DNA of 64,000 bases from a phage, in sequence record PZ049694.1. One strand, 5' to 3'. Made by a program: the position numbers and the translations under genes. The notes below the pieces were generated by a model, which ran no database searches, was not told where the DNA came from, and saw only the letters and a list, made by a program, of their open reading frames with translations. Shown here piece by piece: positions 17,261 to 59,678 of this stretch. Position 1 is the first letter of the stretch; every line of letters begins with the position of its first letter.

Positions 17261-17590
17261 TTATACTCTAGGCTTTTGAGCTTGTTTGGTATTGGATTCC
17301 CATGCGGCTTTGGTAATTTTGTTAGCGGCATAACCAAAGGCACTAGATAGAACACCTTTAGAGTTGAATACATCCAATCCAATAAGTACACTTGCTGTGT
17401 TAAATTTAGGAGCAAAGTACGCATTAGTTTTAGAAAGAGCTTTTTTCAATTCAGGGTCTTGAACCAAGCCATCAAAAACGCCTTTACCATTTACTTTATA
17501 TGTTACTTTGGGATTTTTAGCTTCTTCGATAGCAGCTTTCTGTTCCGCAGATAATGTAACTTCAGTAATAAATTCTTGATATGTTTTCAT
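17261..17590 (-). CDS. internal-protein-like (ipII/ipIII family) with capsid-targeting leader
   Basis: N-terminus MKTYQEFITE, a T4-type 10-aa capsid targeting sequence ending in the gp21 protease site I-x-E. Confidence 0.6.
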   Translation of the reverse strand: MKTYQEFITEVTLSAEQKAAIEEAKNPKVTYKVNGKGVFDGLVQDPELKKALSKTNAYFAPKFNTASVLIGLDVFNSKGVLSSAFGYAANKITKAAWESNTKQAQKPRV

Positions 17591-17681
17591 TTTTGTTTCC
17601 TTGTTTGTTTTGATAGAGTAATTATACCATATTAATACTTAAGCGTAAACTGTTTAAGCTTTACCATCGCAACCTTTTTCC

Positions 17682-18095
17682 TTAGTAAATTGATTTACCA
17701 TAGTATTTGTACCAAGTAGGACGTTGAGCAATTTTTTCATCTAAACGAGCTTGACTTATCGCAATGGACGCTTCGGTCGGGACATAATTATTACGAAATT
17801 CGGCAGGGATGTCGGAAATATCTTGGACAGTCGTGTCCTTGATTTTGAAACCACGTTTCAAGCATTCAGCGATTAGCTCGATTTGACGTAAACGTAAAAA
17901 TTCGAGTTTGTCGTAAAAGAATGTTACGTGACCTGTGCCTAAGATAAATGCTGGAGAGATTTTAAAATCCTTTACACGTTTACCGTTTTGAACATGTTTA
18001 CGGACTGCACCAAATACGCGTGGTAATTCACGATACTCAGCCATAAGATGTTGGTCGGTCAGTTCAGAAACAAGTGTTAAATTGATACGAGTCAT
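17682..18095 (-). CDS. denV: endonuclease V (pyrimidine-dimer DNA glycosylase)
   Basis: [77 protein letters not shown] matches recalled T4 DenV; start trimmed to ATG. Confidence 0.92.
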
Positions 18096-18100
18096 AATTT

Positions 18101-18153
18101 CCTCCAAGTAGTTGATGAATGTATAGTATCAAAGTCCTTGGAGGAAGTAAACA
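18101..18153 (-). promoter_or_regulatory. PeSL-like early promoter whose hairpin pairs the denV Shine-Dalgarno
   Basis: GTTTAC, 18 nt, TACTAT; arms cctccaag / cttggagg; the arm downstream of the -10 contains the denV GGAGG. Confidence 0.5.
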
Positions 18154-18354
18154 CTATTTTTCTGAAGCGCCTGAAATATATTTTTCAAGACGTTGTTTCA
18201 TCAGCGAACCGTTCTTGGCGATTTCTTCCGGTTTATCGCACATACGCAACAAGGCTTCAAGCTTAACGATATCACTGGTGCGTTCAAATTTGCGAGTATC
18301 TATCTTACTAGCAAGTTCAGAAATACGTGCTAATAGACTTTCGGCTTCAACCAA
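18154..18354 (-). CDS. doubtful small ORF, 66 aa, TTG start
   Basis: open frame between e and denV with no in-frame ATG near its start. Confidence 0.25.
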   Translation of the reverse strand: MVEAESLLARISELASKIDTRKFERTSDIVKLEALLRMCDKPEEIAKNGSLMKQRLEKYISGASEK

Positions 18355-18431
18355 AGCTGCACCTAGCTTAGTTGCAAATGTGTCAGTAGCTTAGTTAAGA
18401 ATAGATTCTGATAAAAATTCACTATATGTTT

Positions 18432-18920
18432 TCATATATACGCTTTCCAAGTTCCTGTTTTAAATGTTGAGATTACGCGTTTAGCGCGATTAGGTGTCTG
18501 ACGATACCATTTAGATTGAGCTAGATTTACTGCCGCTTCATCCCAACGTTTCTGTTGAAGCATACGAAGAGAATTAGTAAAACCAGCGACGCCTGCTACG
18601 CCCATTTGGAAGACCATATTGACCAATGCACATCTACGAACCGCATCTAAAGAATCATATACCGGTTTAAGTTTAGCATTACCCAAGATTCCGCGAACGG
18701 CTTTATCAACGTCTTCATTAAATAGCTTTTCAGCCTCATCAAGGGTAATTGTACCGTTGCATTTACGTCCGATCATTCTGTCAAGTTCAGCTTTAGCTAC
18801 GGCTAAAGACGGGTTCTTTGTTACTAAATGACCTATGCCAATCGTCCAAAAGCCTTCAGTGTCTTTGTATAAAGTCAGTCTAAGACCTTCGTCATTACGA
18901 AGCATTTCAAATATATTCAT
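18432..18920 (-). CDS. e: endolysin (T4 lysozyme e)
   Basis: [27 protein letters not shown] with catalytic E11/D20/T26 positions conserved; matches recalled T4 e; GGGAGG Shine-Dalgarno can pair with an upstream CCTCC arm. Confidence 0.92.
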
Positions 18921-18954
18921 AATACCTCCCACGTTTATAGGAGGTATTTATTAC

Positions 18955-19413
18955 TTATAGGAGGGTAGTGAGCACCTTATATAATGATTTGCCCATTACA
19001 TATTCCCATTGAGAAGGTTTAATTAAAGCGAATGCATCAAATTCAGGAATCTGACGTCCGTCTGGGAATGTATGATAGGAATTACAAACACTGTTTCTGA
19101 ATTGCTCGTGCTCTACAGGGATGGTATATAGGAACAGATGAATATTCTTATTGTCTGAGTAATGATGTTCACCTAGGTCTTTCAGGAAGGCAGGGTCATA
19201 TTGTGTAAACCCAGTTTCTTCTTCGCATTCACGAATAGCGGCTTCAATAGGAGATTCGCCAGGCTCGACACGTCCTTTAGGAATATCCCACCGATGAGCT
19301 AAAGAACCTTTAGGACGAGAACCAGTTACACGCCCCATGAATAATTCTTTATCTTCGGTAAGGAAAATAATACCGGCTGATAGTTCTTTCACTTTATTTT
19401 TCTTACTCATCAT
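18955..19413 (-). CDS. nudE: Nudix hydrolase
   Basis: Nudix box GRVEPGESPIEAAIRECEEETGF; immediately upstream of e as in T4. Confidence 0.8.
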   Translation of the reverse strand: MMSKKNKVKELSAGIIFLTEDKELFMGRVTGSRPKGSLAHRWDIPKGRVEPGESPIEAAIRECEEETGFTQYDPAFLKDLGEHHYSDNKNIHLFLYTIPVEHEQFRNSVCNSYHTFPDGRQIPEFDAFALIKPSQWEYVMGKSLYKVLTTLL

Positions 19414-19654
19414 CTCGGTCCCATGATTTGACCATTAATTCGGACATAAATTCTTCAATGCGCGTTTCTTTAGATGGACTTTCACTATTAGAGACCGCAA
19501 GTTTGTAATCTGCAATAGGACAGAACATATCAAGGTCCATATTAAGGTCGTCTTTGATTTTTTCTTCTGACACATCTTTATCGTATGTATACAGATAACT
19601 ATCACACGATTCTGATTTAATGTAAATTGCTATACTCATCTCAAATTCCTGCAT
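19403..19654 (-). CDS. hypothetical acidic protein, 83 aa
   Basis: ORF overlapping both neighbours by a few codons. Confidence 0.45.
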   Translation of the reverse strand: MQEFEMSIAIYIKSESCDSYLYTYDKDVSEEKIKDDLNMDLDMFCPIADYKLAVSNSESPSKETRIEEFMSELMVKSWDRDDE

Positions 19655-20127
19655 TCGGTAATAAAACGTTCAACTTCATTATTCTTGGCTTTTATCTTGT
19701 CTTTATGTTCTTGTAAACTACTTTTAATAAGATTAATAATGATGCCTACAGTACCTCCACCAATTATACCGCCAATTATACTTACGATAGTAGATGCTAA
19801 TAAGATAGCGATAATATCTAGTACAGCAAAGGCACTTACTTTAGTACTAAAAAACCATACCGACGGTACAAATATAATCCATCCTGTTATCCATTGGCAC
19901 TTATTGAAAAACTTTTCAAGCTCAGCTTGAGTTGTTCGTATTACTTCATCGATAGGTTGATATCCATTAATGTATCTATTCACGATAATACCTGCTGGCT
20001 GGTCGATTTTAAATTCTTGGCAAATACGTTTCACTAAGTAGGATGGACATCCTGTCCAATCTACTGAATAGTATGAAATACCTTCGTTGCCATCGTCTAT
20101 ATTAGACCAATATGTTTTGTTAATCAT
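19636..20127 (-). CDS. membrane protein with C-terminal ERFITECR tail motif, 163 aa
   Basis: soluble N-domain, two hydrophobic helices, C-terminus ...NNEVERFITECRNLR; ATGA-coupled to upstream gene. Confidence 0.6.
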   Translation of the reverse strand: MINKTYWSNIDDGNEGISYYSVDWTGCPSYLVKRICQEFKIDQPAGIIVNRYINGYQPIDEVIRTTQAELEKFFNKCQWITGWIIFVPSVWFFSTKVSAFAVLDIIAILLASTIVSIIGGIIGGGTVGIIINLIKSSLQEHKDKIKAKNNEVERFITECRNLR

Positions 20128-20813
20128 TACCAGCCTTCCATAGGGAATTCCAGATAAACTTGAGCGTTGACACGAATTTCATTGGTAATCTTTTTAACTC
20201 GGTCTGTATTACGAGATACACGTCCGAACCAACGCCATCCATTACTAATTGCACGAGAACCAGTGTGCCATGTTTGCCAATCAAACTGAAGAAGAGTACG
20301 GTCCGGAGCTTCCCATTTCTCTAGTTCGCCTTTTTCGATTTTTTCGAGGACTTCTTTGTGCCACTGGCGATAGATAAGTTCGCCATCAGGAATCTGACTG
20401 AACTCCGCAGTTCCTGTTGCAAAATGAGTAGGACACACATCAGCATTAACAAGACCAAGAATATGTTCAGAATGGTAACGAGGGTTGTCATAATCAGGTT
20501 GTCCTGCAGTAATAAAATGTTGTCCTGTTGGAATATCTGGGCGTGGTACGTCATCATGGTGATATCCAGGAATAGCAGGATACCAACCAGGCATCAGCAT
20601 GTGGACTCGTGAATCAAATACTACATCCGAGACTTTCCAATCATCAGGAAGATTTTGGATAAAGCTACGAGTAATCGGGCCGCCATTATCAAAAGCAAAA
20701 TTCAAATCGCAGTTAAAGAACATAGGCTCGTTTTTAATCTGGTCGTTTTTAATCGCATGAGCAAAACCACCTACTGCACGAGCTTGACTATTAAACACTT
20801 TAGAACTATTCAT
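20127..20813 (-). CDS. possible 2OG-Fe(II) oxygenase-fold protein, 228 aa
   Basis: HxD candidate (GYHHDD) then distal His (WHTGSR) and RxS (GRVSR) at plausible spacing; assignment tentative. Confidence 0.35.
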   Translation of the reverse strand: MNSSKVFNSQARAVGGFAHAIKNDQIKNEPMFFNCDLNFAFDNGGPITRSFIQNLPDDWKVSDVVFDSRVHMLMPGWYPAIPGYHHDDVPRPDIPTGQHFITAGQPDYDNPRYHSEHILGLVNADVCPTHFATGTAEFSQIPDGELIYRQWHKEVLEKIEKGELEKWEAPDRTLLQFDWQTWHTGSRAISNGWRWFGRVSRNTDRVKKITNEIRVNAQVYLEFPMEGW

Positions 20814-20814
20814 A

Positions 20815-21120
20815 TTATTTTCCTCGACATTCTTTAATGAAATTTTCTAGATTGGTAGATTCAATAGCTTTTTTACGAGCTTCTGCGTGTTCTTCTTCGG
20901 ACAATTTACGTTTATAATTGACCCAGACATTATGGTCGAAACCAGTCGTGGCATATAATAACAATGCTCCAACGAATAGCAAAAACGGCGATAAGAATAC
21001 AAAACCAGGAACACCATCCATATCGTAAGCCTTTTGTAATACTGCAACAGAAAGAGCTACGTAAAAAGGTGATGCAAGTATTGTTAAAAGACCAATTCGG
21101 TTGGTTTCTGTTAATTTCAT
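20815..21120 (-). CDS. membrane protein with C-terminal ENFIKECR tail motif, 101 aa
   Basis: two hydrophobic helices; C-terminus ...NLENFIKECRGK. Confidence 0.6.
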   Translation of the reverse strand: MKLTETNRIGLLTILASPFYVALSVAVLQKAYDMDGVPGFVFLSPFLLFVGALLLYATTGFDHNVWVNYKRKLSEEEHAEARKKAIESTNLENFIKECRGK

Positions 21121-21176
21121 AATATTCTCCTCAAGTTGATAGGACTACTATAACATAGCCCTATCAGTTTGTACAC

Positions 21177-21395
21177 TTATTTTGACATTTCTTCGATGTC
21201 ACGACGATACCCATCACGAACTTCACGAAGAGCTTCAAGGCCACACATAGGCTCGATACCAGTAATGTGAACTTGATTAATCTGATACTCTACATCTTCT
21301 AACTGAGCGAAAACATAACGACGTTCTGCTGCACAACCAGGTTTAGCTTTACCGAAACGTTTATTCAAAGTAGTCATTTTTATATCTCCATTCAC
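21177..21395 (-). CDS. hypothetical protein, 72 aa
   Basis: ORF flanked by PeSL-like cassettes. Confidence 0.45.
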   Translation of the reverse strand: MNGDIKMTTLNKRFGKAKPGCAAERRYVFAQLEDVEYQINQVHITGIEPMCGLEALREVRDGYRRDIEEMSK

Positions 21396-21457
21396 TCATT
21401 TGTTTTGATAGGTCTATAGTATCAACAACTACAGACCTTGTAAACTGTTTTGTGAAA

Positions 21458-22414
21458 TTATTTGAAAGGTTTTACCATATGGAAATTTTGTTTGAAACGT
21501 TTTACGTAATCGTCGTGTCCTAAGCTTTGGTACATACTTACTACTTTGCTATAATTTTCCCAAGCGAACTCACGGAACCATCCTGATGTGATTGATGTAC
21601 AGACCTTTTCCAATGCCATCATGAAACTGGCTTCAGGGTTAATTTTAAAGTCATTAGGAATCTGAGAACGTTCTAACGCTAGTACACATGATTCTTCATA
21701 TACACCGGCCAATTTGACAATTTCTGGTAACGATTCGAACTTCTCGCGTGAGGTCATGACTTCAGAACCGTCTTTCATATAAAATGTATAAGCCGGACGG
21801 TCTGTTAGTGCAATGGCTTCATGAATAGTATCATGGTCATACGTATAGATGTCATCTTTAAAGAACGCACTTTTAGAAGTGTCAAGAACTGGGTGAGCAT
21901 AGTTCAAGGTTTCTTTCTGGCGTTTCAGCATAATTTCAGTAAGTTCATCGTTCAGTGTAACACCTTTACCACGAAGATACTGAATATGGTTCATAGTCTT
22001 TAAAAAGAATGGATTATTTTTCTTGAAACGATGAGACATCTTAATTGCAAGACATATCTCAGGAGTTGCCCAGTAAAACCCGTTCAAACGGTCTTTAGTC
22101 AAATTTTTCTTGGCGTATTTTAAAAGGTCATAAGAAGACGTGAAATCTTCAGGAGTGAGTTCACCTACTAATTCACGGACATTAGTGATTGCCGGAACAA
22201 TATATGCTTCAAAATGAGTTTCGCGTCCATTATGGAAGCATTTGAAAACTTGGACATCAGGGTTATCTTGGTGAACATATACACCCATCATTTGATTTTT
22301 GAATGCGTTCCAAGAACCTTGGTCCGCAATAAAGTCCCAATCGCTATTTTTGATAGCGCTAGAATCAATAAGACCGTGATAGTGAAGTGCACGAGAACCA
22401 ATAACTAACATCAT
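21458..22414 (-). CDS. hypothetical protein, possible divergent nucleotidyltransferase fold, 318 aa
   Basis: N-terminus MMLVIGSRALHYHG...SDWDF loosely parallels GS...SDVDF of ORF 8644..9657; GAGGA Shine-Dalgarno. Confidence 0.45.
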   Translation of the reverse strand: MMLVIGSRALHYHGLIDSSAIKNSDWDFIADQGSWNAFKNQMMGVYVHQDNPDVQVFKCFHNGRETHFEAYIVPAITNVRELVGELTPEDFTSSYDLLKYAKKNLTKDRLNGFYWATPEICLAIKMSHRFKKNNPFFLKTMNHIQYLRGKGVTLNDELTEIMLKRQKETLNYAHPVLDTSKSAFFKDDIYTYDHDTIHEAIALTDRPAYTFYMKDGSEVMTSREKFESLPEIVKLAGVYEESCVLALERSQIPNDFKINPEASFMMALEKVCTSITSGWFREFAWENYSKVVSMYQSLGHDDYVKRFKQNFHMVKPFK

Positions 22415-22438
22415 AATATTTTCCTCGGATTAATTAAC

Positions 22439-22690
22439 TTAAATTTCACGACATGCGATATTATATTCATCCCAGAGGTCATCGTGTGAAGCCTCTACCA
22501 ATGGAACGATTGTACCATTTATGTCTTCATTATAAGGGCAAATTGTACAGTGCGCATCTTCGAATCGGATACCTTTGTGTTCAGATTTTTTATAACGCAT
22601 ATCGAATATCTTTGCAAATTTTTCACGAGTAATGGTTTTACCAACCACTTTGGTTCCGATACTTTCGTAATAAATCATTGTGGACTCCAT
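22439..22690 (-). CDS. hypothetical Cys-containing protein, 83 aa
   Basis: ORF preceded by a PeSL-like cassette. Confidence 0.5.
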   Translation of the reverse strand: MESTMIYYESIGTKVVGKTITREKFAKIFDMRYKKSEHKGIRFEDAHCTICPYNEDINGTIVPLVEASHDDLWDEYNIACREI

Positions 22691-22740
22691 TTAATTTGAT
22701 AGGACTACTATAACATAGCCCTATCTTGTTGTAAACTGTT

Positions 22741-22938
22741 TTAGCAAGAATAACTAGACGATACCCAGCCTTGAACAGTGATACTATTGTGGGATAATGA
22801 GATCGCGTCCTGGAGATTCAGACCTGCGTTATCTTCAATCCATAACGTAACTTCTTCGCGTTCTTCTGTTGCAATTTGGAACAGGTTTTCCAGAGCAGCT
22901 ACTGCCGTACGTACAGCACAATCTAATTCACGAGACAT
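22741..22938 (-). CDS. small protein, paralog 3 of tandem family ending ...GWVSSSYSC
   Basis: 65 aa; shares N-terminal MS(K/R) and invariant C-terminal GW[VI][SA]SSxxC with 22948..23220 and 23230..23535. Confidence 0.55.
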   Translation of the reverse strand: MSRELDCAVRTAVAALENLFQIATEEREEVTLWIEDNAGLNLQDAISLSHNSITVQGWVSSSYSC

Positions 22939-22947
22939 ATGGTTTCC

Positions 22948-23220
22948 TTAGCAAGTGTGAGAAGATGCGATCCAACCACCAGTTTCGAGGCTTAGGTTGT
23001 AGTCGTATTGGTAAACGTCGGCCCATTCAGCATAGCCGTTTTTTGTACAACGTTCAAGGTCGGCTTTAAGCTGTCCGGGTGAATGATATGTTCCACCCAT
23101 ACCATAAGCTGGATACAAGTCGAATGTTGTGTTTTGTTTATCAGCAATTTCTTTGGCAGCCTCAATAGCTGCATAGATTTTTGCTACAGCTTCGGCCAGT
23201 TCGGTTTGTTCTTTAGACAT
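22948..23220 (-). CDS. small protein, paralog 2 of tandem family ending ...GWIASSHTC
   Basis: 90 aa; tandem with 9-nt spacers; AGGA Shine-Dalgarno. Confidence 0.55.
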   Translation of the reverse strand: MSKEQTELAEAVAKIYAAIEAAKEIADKQNTTFDLYPAYGMGGTYHSPGQLKADLERCTKNGYAEWADVYQYDYNLSLETGGWIASSHTC

Positions 23221-23229
23221 AATGATTCC

Positions 23230-23535
23230 TTAGCACATCGCAGAAGACGAAACCCAAGCACCTTCAGTAATAACGTAACCATTACCTTCACGCTTAACAT
23301 CGCCACCATTATTTTCAATTTCATCTTTCATCCACTGGGATACGATTTCACCCTTAGGATAATAAGTACGACCGCTACCATAATCACCTACAGAAAATGA
23401 TACGGCATATTGGTCCGCGATCTTTGTTGCTTCTTCTTCGATACGTTCAGCTTGATTCAGAAGTTTATAAATTGCATCTGAAGCGGATTTGGCATCATTA
23501 AACTCTGGTACTTTAATTTCAATAATCTTACTCAT
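23230..23535 (-). CDS. small protein, paralog 1 of tandem family ending ...AWVSSSAMC
   Basis: 101 aa; ATGA-coupled to upstream membrane-protein gene. Confidence 0.55.
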   Translation of the reverse strand: MSKIIEIKVPEFNDAKSASDAIYKLLNQAERIEEEATKIADQYAVSFSVGDYGSGRTYYPKGEIVSQWMKDEIENNGGDVKREGNGYVITEGAWVSSSAMC

Positions 23536-23891
23536 TTTCTACATTCCTTAATAAAGTTTTCGATTGTTTCATTTTCACGTCTAGCTAGGAGTTCATTATA
23601 ACTAATCATTTGAGAAGCGTAAACCTTTTTATTTTTCTTGTTATGGTTTATAAAATCGTAGTAAAAATAGACTACAGTACAAAATGATGCGATGGATGCA
23701 AAGGCTTGGGTATACCGTAAGTCCCGCCATTGGTCTATGAATCCGCCAGTGTTACCTATAAATCCTAATACAACTCCGTCAATAAGAAATCCAACTAATC
23801 CAAAGGCAAATCCCATGCCAATACTCATAATAAAAATTAGAATGTTCTCACCAAGAGAAGGCCATACGGTTAAGAGTTGAGGCTTTTGCAT
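23532..23891 (-). CDS. membrane protein with C-terminal ENFIKECR tail motif, 119 aa
   Basis: hydrophobic helices then ...ETIENFIKECRK. Confidence 0.55.
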   Translation of the reverse strand: MQKPQLLTVWPSLGENILIFIMSIGMGFAFGLVGFLIDGVVLGFIGNTGGFIDQWRDLRYTQAFASIASFCTVVYFYYDFINHNKKNKKVYASQMISYNELLARRENETIENFIKECRK

Positions 23892-24295
23892 CTTATTTCC
23901 TTAACGAATTCCATAGCTTCTTCATATTCATACTTTTTAACAGCTTCATCATACTGAGCTTGGGCTTTTGCGCACTGAACTTTCCACTCACGAACTCGGG
24001 CTCTGTGATGACGGCCTTGGTACCAATATCCCACCCAGTTAATAGGCATTAATAAAAATGGTACAATAAACGACCCGGCTATAATAAGTAAAAACACTGC
24101 ATCAGACGATATAACTTTATTGGAATCTAAAATAGCTCCTATAATCATAAAGATTAAAAATGCTAAAGCTAAAATAGGACCAAACAACACTTCATTAGGA
24201 ATTAATTTACGTTTGTATTCGTATGCCCAGGGCTTAATTGGCATGTACAGGGTTGGCTTTGACATATTCTCTACATTCCATAATAAATTGCTCAA
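23870..24295 (-). CDS. membrane protein with related C-terminal motif (EFVKEIRCK), 141 aa
   Basis: two hydrophobic helices; start may be an internal ATG. Confidence 0.5.
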   Translation of the reverse strand: MSNLLWNVENMSKPTLYMPIKPWAYEYKRKLIPNEVLFGPILALAFLIFMIIGAILDSNKVISSDAVFLLIIAGSFIVPFLLMPINWVGYWYQGRHHRARVREWKVQCAKAQAQYDEAVKKYEYEEAMEFVKEIRCKSLNS

Positions 24296-24851
24296 GGATT
24301 AAATTGTTAGTGAAATTAGGACTAACAACCATGGTTTCATAAAGCGCATCAATAGCACTTAAAGCATCAACTCTCTTAAGCAAAGGCTTGCCTTCATACA
24401 TAGTTTCAGAATCGACGATTAAAGTGAAGTAGTATTTTTTATTATTGACCAGAACTTCTGTATCAATATAAAACATGTTAGACCTTAAAAGCTTGTCTCT
24501 AAAGCCTACGTAATCATCTGAACGTTCACTGATATATTCCCATTCAGTGTTTAAACAACAAACAGACCACGTAGGAGCAACGAAATCAGTGAATCTAATA
24601 TCATGATCTGCAACTAATTTAGCAATAGCTCCGATATCATGAATCATAATACCTGGGGCTAATAAAGATTTTCGGCGATTTGCATATTCAGTTGTCTCAT
24701 AAGAAGCTGACCAGTACCATTTACGTCCAGTTGCAACATATCGTAATGAATCAACTAAAGACGTAGGTGGATTTACCTTATTTCGGAACTCTTCGAACAT
24801 TGAGTCAATATCATTATTTTGGTTTCGCATGTTAACTCCTTTATTATCCAA
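24234..24851 (-). CDS. hypothetical soluble protein carrying the same tail motif near its C-terminus (EQFIMECREYV), 205 aa
   Basis: ORF; motif lies 10 aa from the end. Confidence 0.5.
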   Translation of the reverse strand: MDNKGVNMRNQNNDIDSMFEEFRNKVNPPTSLVDSLRYVATGRKWYWSASYETTEYANRRKSLLAPGIMIHDIGAIAKLVADHDIRFTDFVAPTWSVCCLNTEWEYISERSDDYVGFRDKLLRSNMFYIDTEVLVNNKKYYFTLIVDSETMYEGKPLLKRVDALSAIDALYETMVVSPNFTNNLILEQFIMECREYVKANPVHAN

Positions 24852-24879
24852 AAGGAGGACCGGAGTCCTCCGTATTATT

Positions 24880-25473
24880 TTATTTCAAAGAGTTAATATA
24901 TTCTTGTACATCGGCAGAAGTGGTTTCGACACCGGTTGGAGTGCCATTGAACGTTTCAACACGAGTCAGAGTGTCTTCGATATCAACCTTAGTCAGTGCA
25001 GCGATTTCAATTACATCATCAGCCGTAGAGATACCAAGGGCATTAGCTGCTCGAGTTTCACGAATGTATTCGAGTTTGATTGCCAGGTTCTGACGAGCAT
25101 CGTCAAGTTCAACCACCTTACGAGCAATTTCAATTCGCATAGCGGCATACCCGTCAGCTTTTGTATTAAGTTGTTCGGCAGTTCGACGATACAGAAGACC
25201 AAGCTTGGCATGCATGGTAACATCTTGTCCTTCAGCCAGGAGCTTACGAATTTCACGTTCCTTAGAAGCGGCTTGCTTATTCTTTTCAATAACAAGTTCG
25301 CGAATACGTTTTTCTTCATTAATAGATTTAACAGAAGCCGTTTTTAGTTCTTTGATTTGGGTAATCAACTTATCTGCAGCTGCGTTATACTGTTCTTCGA
25401 CAGTCAGATTTTTAGCCATAGCAGTACCCAGTTTAGTGCGGATGAATTCAACAAGTTTCTTCAGTGTGTTCAT
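24880..25473 (-). CDS. coiled-coil protein, 197 aa (start trimmed to ATG MNTLKKL)
   Basis: track ORF starts at TTG; ATG has a GAAAGG Shine-Dalgarno; upstream TTTACA, 17 nt, TATAAT promoter with inverted repeat. Confidence 0.55.
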
Positions 25474-25543
25474 ATTATTACCTTTCAATTGGTGGTTTAT
25501 TATCCAATGAGAGCATTATACTCTGCTCTCAAGAGTTTGTAAA

Positions 25544-25771
25544 TTATTTTTTAATCAAATTAACATAAAACTTGGCGTCTTCGGGGTGCATGCCTTCGCA
25601 GTATTCTTCAACCATGAACTTCTTAACAGCTTCATAAGGACCACTCAGATTAAGCTCGGTTGTCCAGAACTTGGAATCTTGGACTGAATCGATACGAACT
25701 TCAGGGTGACGGTTGCGAATAACTTCTTCGGTGTATTCATAATCAACGACATCAATACTAACTGTAGCCAT
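25544..25771 (-). CDS. hypothetical protein, 75 aa
   Basis: ORF. Confidence 0.5.
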   Translation of the reverse strand: MATVSIDVVDYEYTEEVIRNRHPEVRIDSVQDSKFWTTELNLSGPYEAVKKFMVEEYCEGMHPEDAKFYVNLIKK

Positions 25772-25817
25772 TTTGTTTTCCTCTTGATTTGATAGGACTA
25801 CTATAACATAAACTTAC

Positions 25818-25982
25818 TTAGATGTAAATTATTTCAACGTCACCTTTAGCTGCTTTATAACCTTCAGCCCAAGATACAACAGAGTTTTTATCTGAGGATT
25901 CAAATTCAGGCATTGGGCTTTCGCCAATGTTCACACAGTATGTTTCTTCATTTTCGTCAAACCAAATAATTAAAGTAGTCAT
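25818..25982 (-). CDS. hypothetical protein, 54 aa (start MTTLIIWF)
   Basis: ATG with GAGGAG Shine-Dalgarno lies inside a 42-nt cassette repeated at 62427..62468. Confidence 0.5.
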   Translation of the reverse strand: MTTLIIWFDENEETYCVNIGESPMPEFESSDKNSVVSWAEGYKAAKGDVEIIYI

Positions 25983-26040
25983 TTTGTTTACTCCTCTGTA
26001 GTTGATAAGTCTATAGTAACACCGTCCTTGGCGTTTGTAC
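25977..26040 (-). repeat. PeSL-like promoter/5'-UTR cassette, copy 1 (42 nt identical to 62427..62468)
   Basis: agtcattttgtttactcctctgtagttgataagtctatagta is identical at both loci and includes the Shine-Dalgarno, ATG and second codon of the downstream gene. Confidence 0.6.
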
Positions 26041-26041
26041 A

Positions 26042-26545
26042 TCATTTATTTTTAATTTTGCAAATTTTTTCTGCTTCAGCAATTGCAGCGTCAATGATGC
26101 TTTGTGCAATTTTATTACTAGTTGACCTGGCAATCACACTAAGAACAATTTCTTTTTCTTCACCACCCCAACCCCAAGTCCTTTGTTCGTGGGTACCTTT
26201 AACTACAGCTGAAACTTCAACAGAACGTCCACCATCAGAAGTTTTAACATCTACAACCCAATCACCATCTTTCTCTTCTACCCTTGATTTATCCCAAGAA
26301 ATACTAATATATGATTCGCTGTCAATAGAAGTCGCCGGGTTTTTCTCTACCGTAAGACCTTCACTTTCCAGCCATTCAATAGTATTTGCGCATAAATCAG
26401 AAGAACACCTCATCGGAAACCGGCAAGATTTTTCACCTTTAGATGCTGCATCGTACATCTTTTCCAAAATACGCTTTTGCACGTTTTTAAAAATAGTTTC
26501 AGCGGATTCTTCAGATTTTTTATTCAGTTCAGTGTAAAGACTCAT
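26042..26545 (-). CDS. hypothetical protein, 167 aa
   Basis: ORF with GAGGAG Shine-Dalgarno. Confidence 0.6.
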   Translation of the reverse strand: MSLYTELNKKSEESAETIFKNVQKRILEKMYDAASKGEKSCRFPMRCSSDLCANTIEWLESEGLTVEKNPATSIDSESYISISWDKSRVEEKDGDWVVDVKTSDGGRSVEVSAVVKGTHEQRTWGWGGEEKEIVLSVIARSTSNKIAQSIIDAAIAEAEKICKIKNK

Positions 26546-26621
26546 AATATTCTCCTCATGTTTTAATAGGACTATAGTAACACATCTAGGGAAGAAGTAA
26601 ACAACTTTTTCAGTAAGTTAT

Positions 26622-26652
26622 AGACCCCCTAATGGGGACCGAAGTCCCCATT
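26622..26652 (-). terminator. double stem-loop element after the 26655..27281 stop
   Basis: minus strand tggggacTTCGgtcccca then ttaggggg; near-copy at 8299..8327. Confidence 0.4.
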
Positions 26653-26654
26653 CT

Positions 26655-27281
26655 TTACTTACGAGTTTTTGCATACTGAGCAGCGTCAGCAGCCAAACGA
26701 CCTGCCTGACGAAGTTTTTCTTTAATCGCATCGTGAAGTGGTTGAGTATACTTCAAACCTTCGATAGTCAAATAAAGACGATAAAGGTCTGGGGTATCAA
26801 GGTTGTTGATATGTTGGCCATTACGAAGACTGTTGAATTCACGAACGAGTGAAGATGTATCGGATTCAATATCACGAACAAGCGAAGATAGTTGTTTATA
26901 TTTTTTTTCCAGGCTAGAAGTATCAAACTTAAGAGCAGGAGCTTTAGGAGTTGCTTTTACTTCCGGCTTAGGCTCAGGTTTTGCTATTGCTTTAGGGGTC
27001 GCAGGTTTAGGAACGGTAGGAGCAGGTTTTACTTTAGGCGAACCCGATTTAGCAGAAACACCGCCACTAACAATATCTTTGAATGCTTTAGAAGCTCTGT
27101 AATATTCTTTTTGGCTGGAAGTGTCGATACCATACATGGCTTGAACGTTTTTGAAAAACTCTGTACTAGTTTTTGTACCAGAAATAGCATCGTAAGCAGC
27201 TTGCCATTTCTCTTTTGTCATACGTACACCGGCTTCGGTGATTACTTCCGTTTCGGCTAAAAATTCATTAAAAGTATACAT
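26655..27281 (-). CDS. internal-protein-like (ipIII-like) with capsid-targeting leader and Pro/Lys-rich repeat, 208 aa
   Basis: N-terminus MYTFNEFLAE resembles the 10-aa capsid targeting sequence ending L-x-E; KPAPTVPKPATPKAIAKPEPKPEVKATPKAP low-complexity tract. Confidence 0.55.
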   Translation of the reverse strand: MYTFNEFLAETEVITEAGVRMTKEKWQAAYDAISGTKTSTEFFKNVQAMYGIDTSSQKEYYRASKAFKDIVSGGVSAKSGSPKVKPAPTVPKPATPKAIAKPEPKPEVKATPKAPALKFDTSSLEKKYKQLSSLVRDIESDTSSLVREFNSLRNGQHINNLDTPDLYRLYLTIEGLKYTQPLHDAIKEKLRQAGRLAADAAQYAKTRK

Positions 27282-27316
27282 TGATGGTCCTTAGAAAGTA
27301 GGTTTATTGTTTACTA

Positions 27317-27324
27317 TATTTATA
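27317..27324 (-). promoter_or_regulatory. late promoter TATAAATA upstream of the ipIII-like gene
   Basis: minus-strand TATAAATA about 35 nt upstream of the ATG. Confidence 0.4.
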
Positions 27325-27355
27325 CAAAAAAGCCCCAACCTTTCGGAAGGGGCTA
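27324..27355 (-). terminator. rho-independent terminator
   Basis: minus strand agcccc-ttccgaaaggtt-ggggct then TTTTTT. Confidence 0.65.
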
Positions 27356-27397
27356 TATACCTTGTCGGGGTTTCCACCTACTAAGGCAAGTGTTTGT

Positions 27398-27470
27398 ACG
27401 AAACGCCGGGATTCGAACCCGGTTATTAAGCAGTTGACGCTACTCAATATTTTTAAAAGGCCATATCTCG
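27398..27470 (-). pseudogene. tRNA-like remnant: intact T-arm and acceptor-like pairing, degenerate D and anticodon arms
   Basis: minus strand ccgggTTCGAATcccgg T-arm then cgtttcg; candidate 5' strand cgagata pairs 6 of 7; no canonical cloverleaf could be drawn by hand. Confidence 0.3.
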
Positions 27471-27657
27471 ACCATATCCGAACGTTCCGTCAAAAACGCT
27501 ACTCGGCTTACGGCAAAGATATTTCCTCGAATCGGTAATTCTTTGCGCCGTTTCTGCTGTGATGTAAGGGGATATTAACAAATCATAAAGATTTATTAAG
27601 ACAAGTCCTTACTCAGGGAACATCAGTCCGACGACTTGCCGGTAGCGACCCGGCTTC
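27471..27657 (-). ncRNA. non-coding tract between tRNA genes and terminator; candidate small stable RNA(s)
   Basis: about 190 nt with no ORF on either strand; several hairpins (gccgg-gtcgcta-ccggc); T4 carries stable species 1/2 RNAs in its tRNA region (by analogy only). Confidence 0.25.
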
Positions 27658-28002
27658 TTATTTTGACATATCATCAATTTGTTCTCTACGTCTACGCCAT
27701 AGATTAATTACTTCATCAACACATTCAGCATTTGGTATATGACGACAATAGTATAGTGATTCGCGTTTCTGGAACCGATGTTGTAATGGAATTTCGTTTA
27801 AAAGGTCTTTACGGTCAAAGTATTCAAAACTAGTTAACCCGGAACGGTTTTTAAGAAACTTCCAATGTCCGAATTCATTTTGAAAATAGACATAATCAGC
27901 ATGCTGATACAGCGAATTAATTAACCTATCGGAAATAACTGTTTCACGTTCGTTAAAATAAAACGTTAAGTCATGAACTACCAGATAAATATTGCCTTTC
28001 AT
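27658..28002 (-). CDS. hypothetical protein, 114 aa (start trimmed to ATG MKGNIYLVV)
   Basis: track ORF N-terminus overlaps tRNA-Arg; internal ATG has a GAGGA Shine-Dalgarno. Confidence 0.5.
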   Translation of the reverse strand: MKGNIYLVVHDLTFYFNERETVISDRLINSLYQHADYVYFQNEFGHWKFLKNRSGLTSFEYFDRKDLLNEIPLQHRFQKRESLYYCRHIPNAECVDEVINLWRRRREQIDDMSK

Positions 28003-28020
28003 ATTTTCCTCACTTAAAGT

Positions 28021-28097
<77 letters not shown>

Positions 28098-28100
28098 GAT

Positions 28101-28175
28101 TGGTGACCCTGGCTGGTTTCGATCCAGCTACCTATCAGTTATGAGCTGACAGCTCTCCCATTGAGCTACAGGGCC
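28101..28175 (-). tRNA. tRNA with CAT anticodon (Ile2-type by T4 analogy, or Met), CCA encoded
   Basis: acceptor GGCCCTG/CAGGGTC, D-arm GCTC-AATGGGA-GAGC, anticodon arm GTCAG-CTCATAA-CTGAT, T-arm GCTGG-ATCGAAA-CCAGC; 3 nt from tRNA-Arg. Confidence 0.75.
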
Positions 28176-28254
28176 TAAATAACTTTCTATTATGAAAGGC
28201 ACTTTAGAGCACCTTTGGTAATAGAGGGTATGAATTAATAATAACACATAATTC

Positions 28255-28770
28255 TTAAAGCAAATCAATCATTTTAACAGTCGGCAAAACAATTTCTTCT
28301 TCAATATAAGCGAATTCAACACGTTCAACTACACGCAAGAAATCATAGTCGTAGTATTCAGAAGCATAGCCAAGAATATCAATAAGGCCTTGGGATATCT
28401 CATCGCCTTTCACAAAGAACAGGTCGAATACACGCGATTCGTCTTCTTCAGATTTATTACCAAGGTCGACTTCAATATCAAAGACCTTTTTAATGAATTC
28501 TGGATAAAGCTGGTCTGAGAACAGTCCTTCAACCAAGTATTCATAGATTAAAAGCGAGCAATCACTGAATGGTGTATTACCACAGTAACGTTCAGCTTTA
28601 GTGCTAGAATGACGACTCTTAAATTTCTTCAAGAGATATTTAAACTGTTGGAGCTCATGCTCTTCTACACCAAATAATGTTTTGGTTTTATAGTTGTCGC
28701 CGTCATTTTCCCAAGTAGTGACATCAATTACGTAACCTTTAGGAATTGTACTGCCTAAACAAATATTCAT
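28255..28770 (-). CDS. hypothetical acidic protein, 171 aa
   Basis: ORF upstream of the tRNA pair. Confidence 0.55.
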   Translation of the reverse strand: MNICLGSTIPKGYVIDVTTWENDGDNYKTKTLFGVEEHELQQFKYLLKKFKSRHSSTKAERYCGNTPFSDCSLLIYEYLVEGLFSDQLYPEFIKKVFDIEVDLGNKSEEDESRVFDLFFVKGDEISQGLIDILGYASEYYDYDFLRVVERVEFAYIEEEIVLPTVKMIDLL

Positions 28771-28774
28771 TTAC

Positions 28775-29065
28775 TCACCGTACCATATTAATGTAATTAT
28801 ATTCAATGCAACATAATTTCAAAGGATTCTTGAAAATATCATATTCAAGAGGACCTTTTTCTGTTTCAATAAAGAAATCAAAGTTCACACTATTAAATTT
28901 GCGGTCTTCCCAAAGTAATTTAACCTGTGAAGATGAACGGTCGACGTAAACCTTTTCAACTTCAAAGTGGGTCAAAATACCATAGTAATCGACTAGTGCT
29001 TTAGCTGCAGCTCGGTCGCTTTCATATCCATTCTCAACGGATTTTACCTTAGCATAAAGAATCAT
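28775..29065 (-). CDS. hypothetical protein, 96 aa
   Basis: ORF; ATGA overlap with upstream gene. Confidence 0.5.
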   Translation of the reverse strand: MILYAKVKSVENGYESDRAAAKALVDYYGILTHFEVEKVYVDRSSSQVKLLWEDRKFNSVNFDFFIETEKGPLEYDIFKNPLKLCCIEYNYINMVR

Positions 29066-29424
29066 GAATGTTCCACCATTTCAAAGGTATGAGCATCAAC
29101 AATATGATACCAGTCAAAATTTTCTTCTGCGTTTTTACAAATTTCGCGAAGAGCCTCAACAGTTTTTCCTGTAGCAACAAGGTCGTCAATACCGCCAAGA
29201 GGATAACAGTCGTAACCGGCAAACAGAAGGAAATTAATAGTTTCTGTAGGGGCCGGATGCAGTGTACCATTGTCATCGACTACTTCAAAGAACATATAAC
29301 CAGGCGATTTAGATTTAATCCAAGCCCATGCTTGAGCTGCTGAATCAAATGGTCTGCGTATCAAACGACAATCAGGGTCTTTAGAAGGATTTGCTTCAAA
29401 ATCCGCATATACGTGATATTTCAT
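29062..29424 (-). CDS. hypothetical protein, 120 aa (start MKYHVYADFE)
   Basis: ATG two nt after the upstream TAA. Confidence 0.5.
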   Translation of the reverse strand: MKYHVYADFEANPSKDPDCRLIRRPFDSAAQAWAWIKSKSPGYMFFEVVDDNGTLHPAPTETINFLLFAGYDCYPLGGIDDLVATGKTVEALREICKNAEENFDWYHIVDAHTFEMVEHS

Positions 29425-29425
29425 T

Positions 29426-29632
29426 TTACTCACCTTTTGCAATTTTATCCATAACGATAGCGATTAAGCCGATTAGAAATGCTACTACCAATGAGATAGA
29501 ATTTTCTGTTGTTGTCAGTAGTCCACAAATGAATCCTACAAACATCGAAAAACTAAAAGCCATTGAAGCAATTACTACAGCAACATTACGAATCAGTTCA
29601 GCGCGTTTCATTTTATTTCTCCATTTACTCAT
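29426..29632 (-). CDS. small two-helix membrane protein, 68 aa
   Basis: two hydrophobic segments; directly downstream of a PeSL-like promoter. Confidence 0.5.
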   Translation of the reverse strand: MSKWRNKMKRAELIRNVAVVIASMAFSFSMFVGFICGLLTTTENSISLVVAFLIGLIAIVMDKIAKGE

Positions 29633-29640
29633 TTTGTTTT

Positions 29641-29679
29641 GATAGGACTACTATAACATAGTCCTATCAGCGTGTAAAC
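29641..29679 (-). promoter_or_regulatory. PeSL-like early promoter (GTTTAC, 18 nt, TGtTATAGT) with 10-bp inverted repeat around the -10
   Basis: gataggacta / tagtcctatc arms, -10 in the loop. Confidence 0.55.
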
Positions 29680-29682
29680 TAC

Positions 29683-29970
29683 TTACAGAAGAGTTTTTGC
29701 AATAATTTTAAGCTGAGCTACAGAAATGTGCTTAGCTTTAAACAGTGCAGTCTCTTCAGCCGGAGAGATAACAATAGTAGCGCCATCTTTCTTAGCGGAC
29801 CACCCGTCTCCTAAGTAAACAGTACCTTTTACTTCTTCGCCGTCAGCTAGACTAATCATTGGTTTACCCTCACGGCCTTTGTTTGCTTTAATAACTTCGG
29901 AAGTAAGGGTTGCTTCAGTCAGAGTAGAAACGTTAGCAACAGGTGATATAAATTCTTTATAGGTTTTCAT
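29683..29970 (-). CDS. internal-protein-like (ipI-like) with 19-aa capsid-targeting leader
   Basis: 95 aa; MKTYKEFISPVANVSTLTE ends in the gp21-type site L-x-E; position upstream of 57B matches T4 ipI. Confidence 0.6.
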   Translation of the reverse strand: MKTYKEFISPVANVSTLTEATLTSEVIKANKGREGKPMISLADGEEVKGTVYLGDGWSAKKDGATIVISPAEETALFKAKHISVAQLKIIAKTLL

Positions 29971-29998
29971 TTTATTTCCTTGAGGTTGTTTATTTGAT

Positions 29999-30034
29999 AG
30001 GATGATAGTAACACACCATCATCCTTATGTAAAC
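29999..30034 (-). promoter_or_regulatory. PeSL-like early promoter (GTTTAC, 18 nt, TACTAT) with inverted repeat
   Basis: aggatgat / atcatcct arms around the -10. Confidence 0.5.
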
Positions 30035-30047
30035 TGTTTTGTGAAAA

Positions 30048-30733
<686 letters not shown>

Positions 30734-30737
30734 TTTA

Positions 30738-31472
30738 TTACCTTAAGATTGTTTCAATTTTAGAATAAAGCTCTTCTAAAGAGCCGTCGTTTGTAATAAC
30801 TAAATCGCCTTCTTCAATAGGCAACCCAGCTTCTGTAATATGTTTATCGGTGGATTCCGTACCAGAGCGAACCACATGAATAACTGTAGCACCCATCGCT
30901 CTAGCGGTTTCCATTTCATGGACTTGACGTGTATCGGTTACGACATAGTAATCGAAATCACTTCCAATATAATCCATATAGTTTAATGCAAAAAGTTTAA
31001 CCCAATACATACGGTCAAATAAATTAACGACAACATCCGTACCGAGGGCTTGCATAAGACGGCGGATTGACCATGTGTCGTTGATATTATTTATAGCTTC
31101 ACGCAGGGCTTCATATGGTTTAATATCTAGATACGAATATCCACCTTCTAACGATGATAATACTTTAACATTATTAATTGGTAAATATTGACTTTGCAAA
31201 TAAATTAGCGCTTCTTCCAATAATTCAATAACATCCAACTTATTGAGATTTAATGGTGTTTCACGGTCGTATCCAATGCCTTCAAAGTATTCGTATTTCA
31301 ACTCTGTGAATACATCAGGGTTTTCAGCATGCCTACGTCCCCAGGCTATTGCTAGAGCGTCTTTAATCGGATATGCCAATTGGTATTTTACGGATTTAAA
31401 GTTTGAATTGATGTAATCGGCAGTGGTGTCTTTACCACTACGTTTGATGCCGCTTAAAAAGATTAGCTCCAT
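30738..31472 (-). CDS. 1: deoxynucleoside monophosphate kinase gp1
   Basis: 244 aa; P-loop GIKRSGKDT; DRMYWVKLFAL and C-terminal ITNDGSLEEL match recalled T4 gp1. Confidence 0.9.
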   Translation of the reverse strand: MELIFLSGIKRSGKDTTADYINSNFKSVKYQLAYPIKDALAIAWGRRHAENPDVFTELKYEYFEGIGYDRETPLNLNKLDVIELLEEALIYLQSQYLPINNVKVLSSLEGGYSYLDIKPYEALREAINNINDTWSIRRLMQALGTDVVVNLFDRMYWVKLFALNYMDYIGSDFDYYVVTDTRQVHEMETARAMGATVIHVVRSGTESTDKHITEAGLPIEEGDLVITNDGSLEELYSKIETILR

Positions 31473-58612: not shown

Positions 58613-59037
58613 TGTATCTTATCCCTGAATCTTATGAATTGGTACTCGAAAATGTCGAAGCACTTATTCCTGAAGCACAGGGCCGAATCGATGCATTGTC
58701 TTCTGCTCTCGATATTGACGATATAAATACTATTATCGAGAACATGCTTGAAACTGAAACGGATTTAGCTGTTGCAATGGCTTCCATTATTAATGAAGAA
58801 CAGTTAAATGAGTTTATTGTTAAACATGTTTCTTCTCGTGGTGAAGTCACCCGCACTAAAGACCGTAAAACTCGCGAACGTAACGCGTTCCAAACAACTG
58901 GTCTTTCTAAAGCAAAACGTAGACAAATCGCTCGTAAGGTCGTTAAAGCTAAAAAAGCTAACCCTTCAGGCCAAGTTAAAGGCTTGCGTAAGCGTAAAAA
59001 AGCTCTTAAACGTCGTAAAGCATTAGGATTAAGCTAA
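58612..59037 (+). CDS. 68: prohead core protein gp68
   Basis: 141 aa, basic C-terminal tail; synteny. Confidence 0.8.
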
Positions 59038-59678
59038 TGAATAAACCCGAGTTACTTATTGAAACTTGGGGTCAACCCGGTGAGATTATTGATGGCGTTC
59101 CAATGTTGGAATCTCATGATGGAAAAGATTCTGGCTTAAAACCAGGGCTTTATATAGAAGGTATTTTTCTTCAGGCAGAGGTTGTTAACCGAAATAAACG
59201 TTTATATCCTAAACGTGTTTTGGAAAAAGCAGTAAGTGACTATATTAAAGAACAAGTTGCAACCAAACAAGCCCTTGGAGAATTAAACCATCCACCTCGT
59301 GCAAATGTTGACCCTATGCAAGCCGCTATCATTATTGAAGATATGTGGTGGAAAGGAAACGATGTATATGGACGTGCTAGAATTATTGAAGGCGACCATG
59401 GTCCCGGTGATAAATTAGCTGCTAATATACGAGCTGGTTGGATTCCAGGTGTTTCCTCTCGTGGTCTTGGTTCTTTAACCGACACCAATAAAGGGTACCG
59501 TATCGTGAACGAAGGATTTAAATTAACCGTCGGCGTAGATGCCGTATGGGGACCTTCTGCTCCAGATGCTTGGGTTACTCCTAAACAAATATCAGAATCA
59601 GAAAATTCGGTGGAAATCACCAAAAACAGTGCTGACGAAGCATTTAAAGCTCTCGCAGAGAGTTTAAAAGCATTATAA
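59037..59678 (+). CDS. 21: prohead core protease gp21
   Basis: 213 aa; synteny and size match T4 gp21. Confidence 0.88.
   Translation: MNKPELLIETWGQPGEIIDGVPMLESHDGKDSGLKPGLYIEGIFLQAEVVNRNKRLYPKRVLEKAVSDYIKEQVATKQALGELNHPPRANVDPMQAAIIIEDMWWKGNDVYGRARIIEGDHGPGDKLAANIRAGWIPGVSSRGLGSLTDTNKGYRIVNEGFKLTVGVDAVWGPSAPDAWVTPKQISESENSVEITKNSADEAFKALAESLKAL

Follow-up and report, generated by a model that had tools for sequence, protein, structure and literature searches.

In phage sequence record PZ049694.1, analysed over a stretch of 64,000 nucleotides (nt; hereafter the window), three minus-strand open reading frames (ORFs) encode proteins of 95, 208, and 109 amino acids (aa) with N-termini that resemble a capsid targeting sequence (CTS). 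Our reading, to which we give a probability of roughly 0.7, is that all three genes encode internal head proteins (Ip) of the T4 type, which would be packaged through the CTS, cleaved, ejected into the host, and used in counter-defence. About 200 phage records match the 13-kb region holding these genes at 95% identity or more, all of the RB69/JS09/mar005P1 type and from the genus Mosigvirus (Straboviridae, Tevenvirinae). By this match, the source of the window is a Mosigvirus, an RB69/JS09-type T4-like coliphage. The three genes, and the two head-assembly genes that bear on them, are listed below.

29683..29970, minus strand: ipI, internal protein I precursor, 95 aa (PF11634, phrog_4363, PDB 2JUB, synteny)
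29914-29970, minus strand: CTS leader of IPI, 19 aa, MKTYKEFISPVANVSTLTE; mature IPI* is residues 20-95
26655..27281, minus strand: 208-aa CTS protein of the rnaC-downstream family (phrog_2280, unknown function, E=1e-57)
17261..17590, minus strand: 109-aa CTS protein of the RB69ORF123c family; leader MKTYQEFITE at 17561-17590, predicted mature residues 11-109
59037..59678, plus strand: gp21 prohead protease, the expected leader-removing enzyme (Pfam Peptidase_S77, E=3e-107)
59712..60524, plus strand: gp22 scaffolding core protein, the target structure of CTS proteins in T4 (Pfam T4_CASP, E=1e-89)

Capsid targeting leaders and the proposed route

An ORF check returned the three genes, all on the minus strand, with the coordinates and N-termini given by the initial annotation, each with a CTS leader containing an L/I-x-E site. 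Among 636 methionine starts of at least 40 aa scanned across the window, a CTS-like N-terminus occurs only in these ORFs (29683-29970, 26655-27281, and 17261-17590). The strict pattern, M-x-[TS]-[YF]-x-[ED]-[FYW]-[LIVM]-x-E, was found twice, against a mean of 0.003 and a maximum of 1 in 300 composition-preserving shuffles. The N-termini read MKTYKEF (95 aa), MYTFNEF (208 aa), and MKTYQEF (109 aa), with Y or F at position 4 and F at position 7 throughout; the 109- and 208-aa proteins also have I or L at position 8 and E at position 10. In T4, genetic analysis of the CTS assigned targeting to positions 4 and 7 and processing to positions 8 and 10, and foreign proteins were packaged with the first 10 residues alone (PMC9026906).

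The predicted L/I-x-E sites (a slash marks the cut) are LTE19/A in IPI, ITE10/V in the 109-aa protein, and both LAE10/T and ITE16/A in the 208-aa protein. The mature forms are predicted at 8.0, 10.6, and 21.2 kDa, with isoelectric points (pI) of 9.0, 9.7, and 9.8, and are thus similarly small and basic to T4 IPI*, II*, and III* (pI 9.0, 9.6, and 9.65). A head-assembly module (gp20, gp68, gp21, gp22, gp23, and gp24) lies farther along in the same window. Classical gp21 sites stand at the classical positions in the phage's own gp23 (FLSE66/AEIGGDHGYN) and gp24 (LLRE10/STT), and its gp21 carries LIE9. With the predicted sites present, the cognate gp21 and gp22 encoded in the window, and the gp23 and gp24 sites as expected, the earlier description of the leaders as gp21-cleavable is supported.

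In the route that we propose, aromatic residues 4 and 7 of the CTS would be the signal that directs each protein to the prohead and into its gp22 scaffolding core; the association of internal proteins with gp22 in T4 has been reviewed (PMC9026906). The gp21 protease would cut after the glutamate of L/I-x-E, that is, at E19 in IPI, at E10 in the 109-aa protein, and at E16 and possibly E10 in the 208-aa protein. Once matured, these small basic proteins would remain in the DNA-filled head, enter the cell with the genome, and act ahead of any phage gene expression. An injected counter-defence role, as the initial annotation had suggested, is the published paradigm for Ip proteins (PMC12373910; 10.1101/2025.11.20.689424). 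Since both their discovery by the CTS and their role as subtype-specific inhibitors of type IV restriction are in the literature, this hypothesis is not a new idea.

Identification of the 95-aa protein as IPI

The Pfam family IPI_T4 (PF11634) matches residues 20-95 of the 95-aa protein over profile positions 1-76 of 76, with E=1.1e-49 and a score of 166.7 bits against a gathering cut-off of 25. The protein also matches phrog_4363, 'internal virion protein', and residues 1-76 of mature T4 IPI* in PDB 2JUB align to its residues 20-95 with E=2e-41 and 93% identity. The mature sequence is identical to T4 IPI* at 71 of 76 positions and to RB69 IPI at 75 of 76. Additionally, the predicted junction, LTE19/ATLTSEV, coincides with residue 1 of the solved mature T4 protein, and the gene sits between 57B and tRNA.4, syntenic with T4. 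This evidence identifies the 95-aa protein as an IPI ortholog.

The initial annotation had called the bodies of all three proteins divergent and their target unknown. Neither description holds for this orthodox IPI: GmrSD inhibition is published for T4 IPI and stated for RB69 IPI (PMC6024577), which differs from T4 IPI at four residues and protects against GmrSD-family enzymes (PMC6024577; PMC13326640). In the window phage, IPI would block GmrSD-type type IV restriction of sugar-modified hydroxymethylcytosine (hmC) DNA. Judged from its sequence, its packaging and processing are almost certain; by analogy with T4 and RB69, it is very likely an inhibitor of a type IV restriction enzyme (RE). As such, the IPI of the window is already known biology. 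Two promoters may serve its gene.

30005..30033, minus strand: T4 early-type promoter upstream of ipI, TTTACA-17-TACTAT, TG-extended; the same element stands before T4 ipI and RB69p156
31088..31095, minus strand: late promoter TATAAATA within gene 1; its positional equivalent in T4 can read through 57A-57B-ipI

The T4 counterpart of the late promoter within gene 1 is found at L002 13006-13013, and near the T4 ip genes exact late promoters are found within gene 1 and ahead of e.

The 109-aa protein and the CTS genes around denV

The 109-aa protein is an uncharacterised new member at a known Ip locus. It shares 94-99% identity with RB69ORF123c orthologs and about 38% with Dhakavirus-type relatives, and the annotations of its relatives are all hypothetical or mistaken. 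Genes of this family always lie beside denV, among further CTS genes, and several of the neighbours are labelled 'internal head protein' in the RB69 record. The order in phage WG01 is e, ORF118, ORF117 (an IPIII homolog), denV, ORF115 (the 109-aa homolog), and ORF114, and all four non-denV neighbours (ORF118, ORF117, ORF115, and ORF114) start with MKTY.(E/Q)FI.E. Thus, the 109-aa protein would be one cassette of a polymorphic array of CTS genes around denV. Its packaging and processing are quite probable from the leader. By analogy, its most likely role would be that of another subtype-specific inhibitor of a modification-dependent nuclease of the GmrSD/McrBC class, with about even chances for inhibition of a type IV RE.

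Two WG01 genes deserve mention in their own right. ORF118 (L007 1384-1782) and ORF114 (3369-3626) are annotated as hypothetical and have a perfect CTS (MKTYNEFIAE and MKTYQEFITE, respectively); flanking denV and the IPIII homolog, they are candidates for unannotated Ip genes in Dhakavirus.

The promoter of the 109-aa gene and a further gene of the array in the window are as follows.

17621..17649, minus strand: T4 early-type promoter driving the 109-aa gene, TTTACG-17-TATAAT, TG-extended; near-identical to the RB69p124/mar007P3_00042 promoter
18154..18435, minus strand: fourth CTS gene, RB69p127 'internal head protein' family, inactivated; ATG at 18435, TAA at 18391-18393

The fourth CTS gene overlaps the stop of gene e (ATGA). 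It has a TAA at codon 15 where mar007P3 has GAA, a single G-to-T change, and its other 66 codons are intact; it escaped the first inspection of the window because it is truncated. In the RB69 reference copy, RB69p127, a -1/+1 indel pair scrambles the CTS (MKTYMNFYQNL...).

For cassette turnover, we compared window positions 17591-17681 and 29971-30050 (minus strand) with L001 2093-2763 and L003 590-1030. Relative to RB69 and mar007P3, the window phage lacks three ip cassettes, of the p124, p125, and p156 types. The promoter and 5' untranslated region (5'UTR) of the 109-aa gene match those of RB69p124/mar007P3_00042, not the ortholog's own upstream region, and the region before the window ipI matches the region before RB69p156. 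The p124-type body was lost with a crossover within the CTS coding sequence, which placed the p123-type body behind the p124 promoter and 5'UTR. The p125-type body was also lost, leaving only its last codons after denV in the mar007P3 alignment. Cassette loss with a crossover inside the CTS points to exchangeable ip cassettes, and this crossover is a clean example of the shared leader serving as a recombination site for cassette shuffling. As a separate observation, a palindromic element (GGAATTGTGA...TCACAATT) stands before T4 ipII and ipIII (L002 3720-3800 and 4420-4496, minus strand) and was not found in the Mosigvirus ip genes examined.

The 208-aa family

The family of the 208-aa protein comprises 144 phage records, all annotated as hypothetical, and forms 13 representative clusters among 1.84e9 proteins. 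Its members come from phages of Escherichia, Klebsiella, Enterobacter, Serratia, Kosakonia, and Yersinia. Deep homolog searches with the uncharacterised proteins returned only T4-like phage proteins, each unnamed or 'hypothetical', and Pfam and NCBIfam gave no significant match to the 109- or 208-aa protein. The window member has the marks of its family, namely the CTS, the invariant residues E16, W26, F42, A66, and K68, a Pro/Ala/Lys linker, and a position downstream of the tRNA cluster. It can be divided into four segments.

27234-27281, minus strand: leader, residues 1-16, with sites LAE10/T and ITE16/A
27063-27233, minus strand: helical N-domain, residues 17-73 (AlphaFold2 pLDDT ~85)
26931-27062, minus strand: Pro/Ala/Lys linker, residues 74-117 (AlphaFold2 pLDDT ~30, disordered)
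26658-26930, minus strand: three-helix C-domain, residues 118-208 (AlphaFold2 pLDDT >90)

The family leader reads M-x-x-[FY]-[NK]-[ED]-[FI]-[LI]-x-E, and in most members a second [LIV]-x-E comes after it. Every member has Glu16 but not Glu10, as the first L/I-x-E site is deleted in the CHI14 and UTI-K1 members. For these reasons, ITE16/A is the better-supported mature N-terminus, and the leader more probably ends at Glu16 than at Glu10. The 10-aa leader first proposed is therefore probably incomplete: the E10 site is present, but only E16 is invariant.

A Pro/Ala/Lys linker of 24-48 residues and variable sequence is found in every family member. In the 208-aa protein, which is basic overall (pI 9.7), it is KPxP-rich, with 11 Pro and 9 Lys in 44 residues and a pI of 10.3. 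The Pro/Lys tract at residues ~85-115 had been presented as an unusual repeat. The tract is there, but a tandem repeat is ruled out, as Tandem Repeats Finder detects nothing at the DNA level at a score of at least 30; the tract is a low-complexity linker conserved in every member. The linker bears a weak likeness to the Pro-rich region of TonB (NCBIfam NF008084, E=0.003, 17 bits against a family cut-off of 315), which is a matter of composition, since no TonB domains are present.

The leader is 38-71% identical between family members whose N- and C-domains drop to 15-25%, which speaks for separate selection on the leader. The Yersinia phage protein P0018 has the C-domain in common with the 208-aa protein (64%) but not the N-domain (20%), whereas in P0025, Q7622, and UTI-K1 the N-domain is shared (39-45%) and the C-domain unrelated (13-14%); a third type of C-domain occurs in P0028. 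On these comparisons, the N- and C-domains of the family are reassorting between phages. A Foldseek search of the 208-aa model against BFVD and PDB returned nothing beyond other members of the family and, at E>2, generic hairpins of helices. We read the leader, N-domain, and spacer as a putative conserved packaging and delivery part; the target would be met by the exchangeable C-domain. More tentatively, and with the balance of probability against it, the family may mark an unrecognised third T-even Ip locus for a modular injected effector with interchangeable C-terminal 'warhead' domains of at least three types.

In Mosigvirus, Karamvirus, Winklervirus, Marfavirus, Kanagawavirus, and Jiaodavirus alike, the family gene follows the tRNA cluster as the next ORF. 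The surrounding gene order is T4-like: vs.6-vs.8, denV, e, nudE, e.2-e.6, rnaC/rnaD, tRNAs, tRNA.2-4, ipI, 57B, 57A, and gene 1. By direct alignment, the ~330 nt between the tRNAs and the 208-aa gene are about 90% identical to T4 rnaD and rnaC. Two elements close this unit and open the next.

27326..27354, minus strand: GC-rich hairpin and T-run (AGCCCC...GGGGCTTTTTT), end of the rnaD/rnaC unit, directly before the late promoter
27317..27324, minus strand: T4 late promoter of canonical sequence, TATAAATA; the 208-aa ATG lies 36 nt farther downstream, behind an AAGGA Shine-Dalgarno sequence

A late promoter, exact or with one mismatch, also lies upstream of the family members in PG7, Potts1, UTI-K1, CHI14, and Q7622, and is thereby conserved in other genera. 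The 208-aa protein would accordingly be made late, from its own TATAAATA promoter, as a leader, a helical N-domain, a Pro/Ala/Lys spacer, and a three-helix C-domain. Its packaging and processing are probable; inhibition of a type IV RE, suggested by analogy with other Ips, is conceivable and less probable than not.

T4 has no gene at the rnaC-downstream site. RB69 has another allele there, ORF149c and ORF148c (L003 3789-4351), a frameshift-split copy of the intact 187-aa RB14ncORF136c (MKTYAEFLTE/A...; L010 1201-1764). This allele type is present in 165 records, mostly Tequatrovirus, at the same site. It shares locus, CTS, and collinear architecture with the 208-aa family, but hhalign lends no more than weak support to their homology (E~1e-3, probability 22%, 131 columns).

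Two observations concern the neighbouring sequence. The non-coding stretch at ~27355-27650 (minus strand), about 90% identical to T4 rnaD/rnaC (species 2 and 1 RNAs), contains a tRNA-like T-arm, GGTTCGAATCCCGG; Rfam gave no family at E<=0.1 for the non-coding stretch at 27.3-27.65 kb. The mechanically called ORF at 27658-28050 (minus strand) has a TTG start and overlaps tRNA-Arg(tct) at 28021-28097 (minus strand); the true start of this RB69ORF150c-like gene is probably an internal ATG (MKGNIYLVV...).

Counter-evidence and alternative explanations

Several observations weigh against reading all three genes as packaged counter-defence proteins. Immediately upstream of the 109-aa gene there is only an early-type promoter; the nearest late-promoter-like sites, upstream of e, each have one mismatch, and one-mismatch sites are not above chance in our scan (159 against 167 expected). 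The early promoter is no argument against packaging, since T4 ipI has the same arrangement and the gene-1 late promoter is kept in the window. The residue after the cut (P1') in the 109-aa site is Val (ITE/V), whereas the verified sites of the window phage have A, S, or T. Furthermore, RB69ORF123c (L003 14001-14330) reads FIAA for FITE, with Ala replacing Glu10. Because Glu10 is absent from this ortholog, cleavage there would be dispensable or lost in RB69 and not universally kept. In T4, packaging is still possible with a non-cleavable position 10.

For both the 109- and 208-aa proteins, the leaderless bodies gave no sequence or fold relative of known function, and a literature search covering Mosigvirus and relatives returned no virion proteomics or N-terminal data for either family. 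The 208-aa gene lies outside both classic Ip loci (57B-tRNA.4 and the denV-e region), whereas the IPI and 109-aa genes each lie in one; such a position is a habit and no mechanistic requirement. Its type-A C-domain is 64-77% conserved across genera, a pattern to be expected less from a fast arms race than from a structural role or a conserved partner. Finally, 10 further ip genes confronted with five more active GmrSD systems yielded no new pairs (Silas et al., PMC12373910), so inhibition of type IV REs cannot be assumed for every Ip.

The latter result leads to the alternative that survives best, although it stays in the minority: the 109- and/or 208-aa protein may be injected and yet have targets other than type IV REs, either other first-response defences or host physiology. 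Besides the missing GmrSD pairings, it is favoured by Alt, a packaged T4 protein with a non-restriction target, RNA polymerase (PMC9026906). The conservation of the 208-aa C-domain over phages of Escherichia, Klebsiella, Enterobacter, Serratia, and Yersinia also suggests a conserved target, and GmrSD is hypervariable. However, modification-dependent nucleases are the target of every CTS-type Ip for which one is known (Ip1, Ip2, Ip3, and Bas37_0260), and such enzymes attack the arabinosyl-hmC DNA of RB69-type phages (PMC6024577).

The main rival for the 208-aa protein taken singly is a mainly structural or DNA-associated role in the head, in the manner of T4 IPIII in morphogenesis or, through the Lys/Pro/Ala tract, of a histone-H1-like DNA counter-ion; the protein would be packaged by its CTS and aid core assembly, DNA condensation, or ejection. 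We consider it unlikely, and slightly less probable than the preceding alternative. The dedicated late promoter resembles those of structural genes, the locus is fixed and the gene retained across at least six genera, and the C-domain conservation and basic character (both the whole protein and its linker) agree with such a role; T4 internal proteins bind DNA at low salt, and IPIII mutants are slower in head assembly (PMC9026906). On the other hand, T4 lacks the gene, so the protein is not needed for head assembly of the T4 type. The locus is polymorphic within Mosigvirus, where RB69 has its different, frameshifted allele, and domain exchange between phages is typical of accessory or effector genes. 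Moreover, T4 IPIII, long suspected to be structural, proved to be a GmrSD inhibitor (PMC12373910).

It is very improbable that the 109- and/or 208-aa protein is not packaged, with the CTS a recombination scar of ip cassettes and action inside the infected cell after early or late expression: the 109-aa gene did take its promoter, 5'UTR, and first codons from a neighbour cassette, the promoter is early, the RB69 ortholog lost Glu10, and CTS genes decay in the clade (the scrambled RB69p127 and the nonsense codon in the window copy), but the first 10 residues package foreign proteins in T4 (PMC9026906), both proteins retain Y/F4 and F7 for targeting, conservation within the 208-aa family is highest in the leader as compared with the bodies, and an early promoter is arranged likewise before T4 ipI, a gene with a proven packaged product.

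Significance

If the three proteins are packaged and injected as we favour, they would act before phage gene expression and so decide the survival of modified T-even DNA against first-response nucleases. Such proteins shape host range and are relevant to the choice of therapeutic T4-like phages. The 109- and 208-aa proteins are testable candidates for adding to the few Ip-defence pairs known so far (Ip1-3 and Bas37_0260). Of the two, the 208-aa family offers the better lead, as it occurs in phages of several host genera and lies outside the usually screened ip loci; its absence from T4 may explain why it was overlooked. Its domain swaps provide natural chimeras for mapping the packaging part against the activity part. 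Overall, the genes are sound anti-defence candidates in a well-described system, with one modestly novel family.

Comparison with known Ip systems

T4 Ip1, Ip2, and Ip3 are inhibitors of three different GmrSD type IV enzymes, one each, and the authors suggest GmrSD variants as the common target of all proteins from 'the two Ip loci' (PMC12373910); IPIII is required on ECOR17 (PMC9391042). The CTS protein Bas37_0260 blocks McrBC (10.1101/2025.11.20.689424). The ip genes have been found by their CTS since 1994, with more than 30 variants cited, and are described as exchangeable cassettes linked to early-promoter elements (PMC2839356).

The window IPI agrees with T4 IPI in length, in the 19-residue leader ending in TE/A, and in the locus 57B-ipI-tRNA.4; the mature proteins differ by five substitutions, and the leaders are identical at 12 of 19 positions. 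From RB69 IPI it differs by a single substitution, V to A in SL(V/A)DGEE. RB69 has an additional ip gene (p156) between 57B and ipI, which the window phage lacks.

T4 IPII and IPIII (phrog_7857 and phrog_5341) are inhibitors of GmrSD-ECOR21 and GmrS1/GmrSD2-ECOR17. They resemble the uncharacterised proteins in the CTS, MKTYQEFI(A/T)E, and in being small and basic; the 109-aa gene lies in the same denV-e array, and IPIII, at 193 aa, is near the 208-aa protein in size. Alignment to the three T4 proteins, proposed with the initial annotation, gave a divided result: the 95-aa protein is IPI, whereas the leaderless 109- and 208-aa bodies have no detectable relationship in sequence to IPII and IPIII. 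Weak full-length PHROG matches to 'internal head protein' families (E~1e-3) stem from the CTS alone and are lost without the leader, after which the 109-aa protein matches only phrog_3966 and the 208-aa protein only phrog_2280. The leaderless bodies gave no BLASTP hit or E=0.21 against IPII and IPIII, and hhalign against IPIII gave E=0.59. The 208-aa protein further differs from IPII and IPIII in its locus, its own late promoter, and its two-domain-plus-linker architecture.

Bas37_0260, reported in the HIDEN-SEQ preprint from the ipI locus, was found by position and leader and has an unrelated body behind the same packaging signal. Its target was assigned experimentally, unlike those of the 109- and 208-aa proteins, and the likeness is drawn from its description and not from its sequence. 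Polymorphic toxins offer an analogue of the delivery-module and warhead reading of the 208-aa family, in which each warhead would meet a different host defence or factor.

A further close parallel is given by the polymorphic T-even Ip cassettes (Repoila 1994; Comeau 2007). As in those phages, early-promoter and CTS elements stand at the ipI and denV loci of the window, cassettes are gained and lost between close relatives, and junctions fall in shared 5' sequence. The 208-aa family departs from this pattern in its third site, its late promoter, and the exchange of domains instead of whole-gene replacement. With its broad distribution outside Tequatrovirus T4, it goes a little beyond the published accounts consulted.

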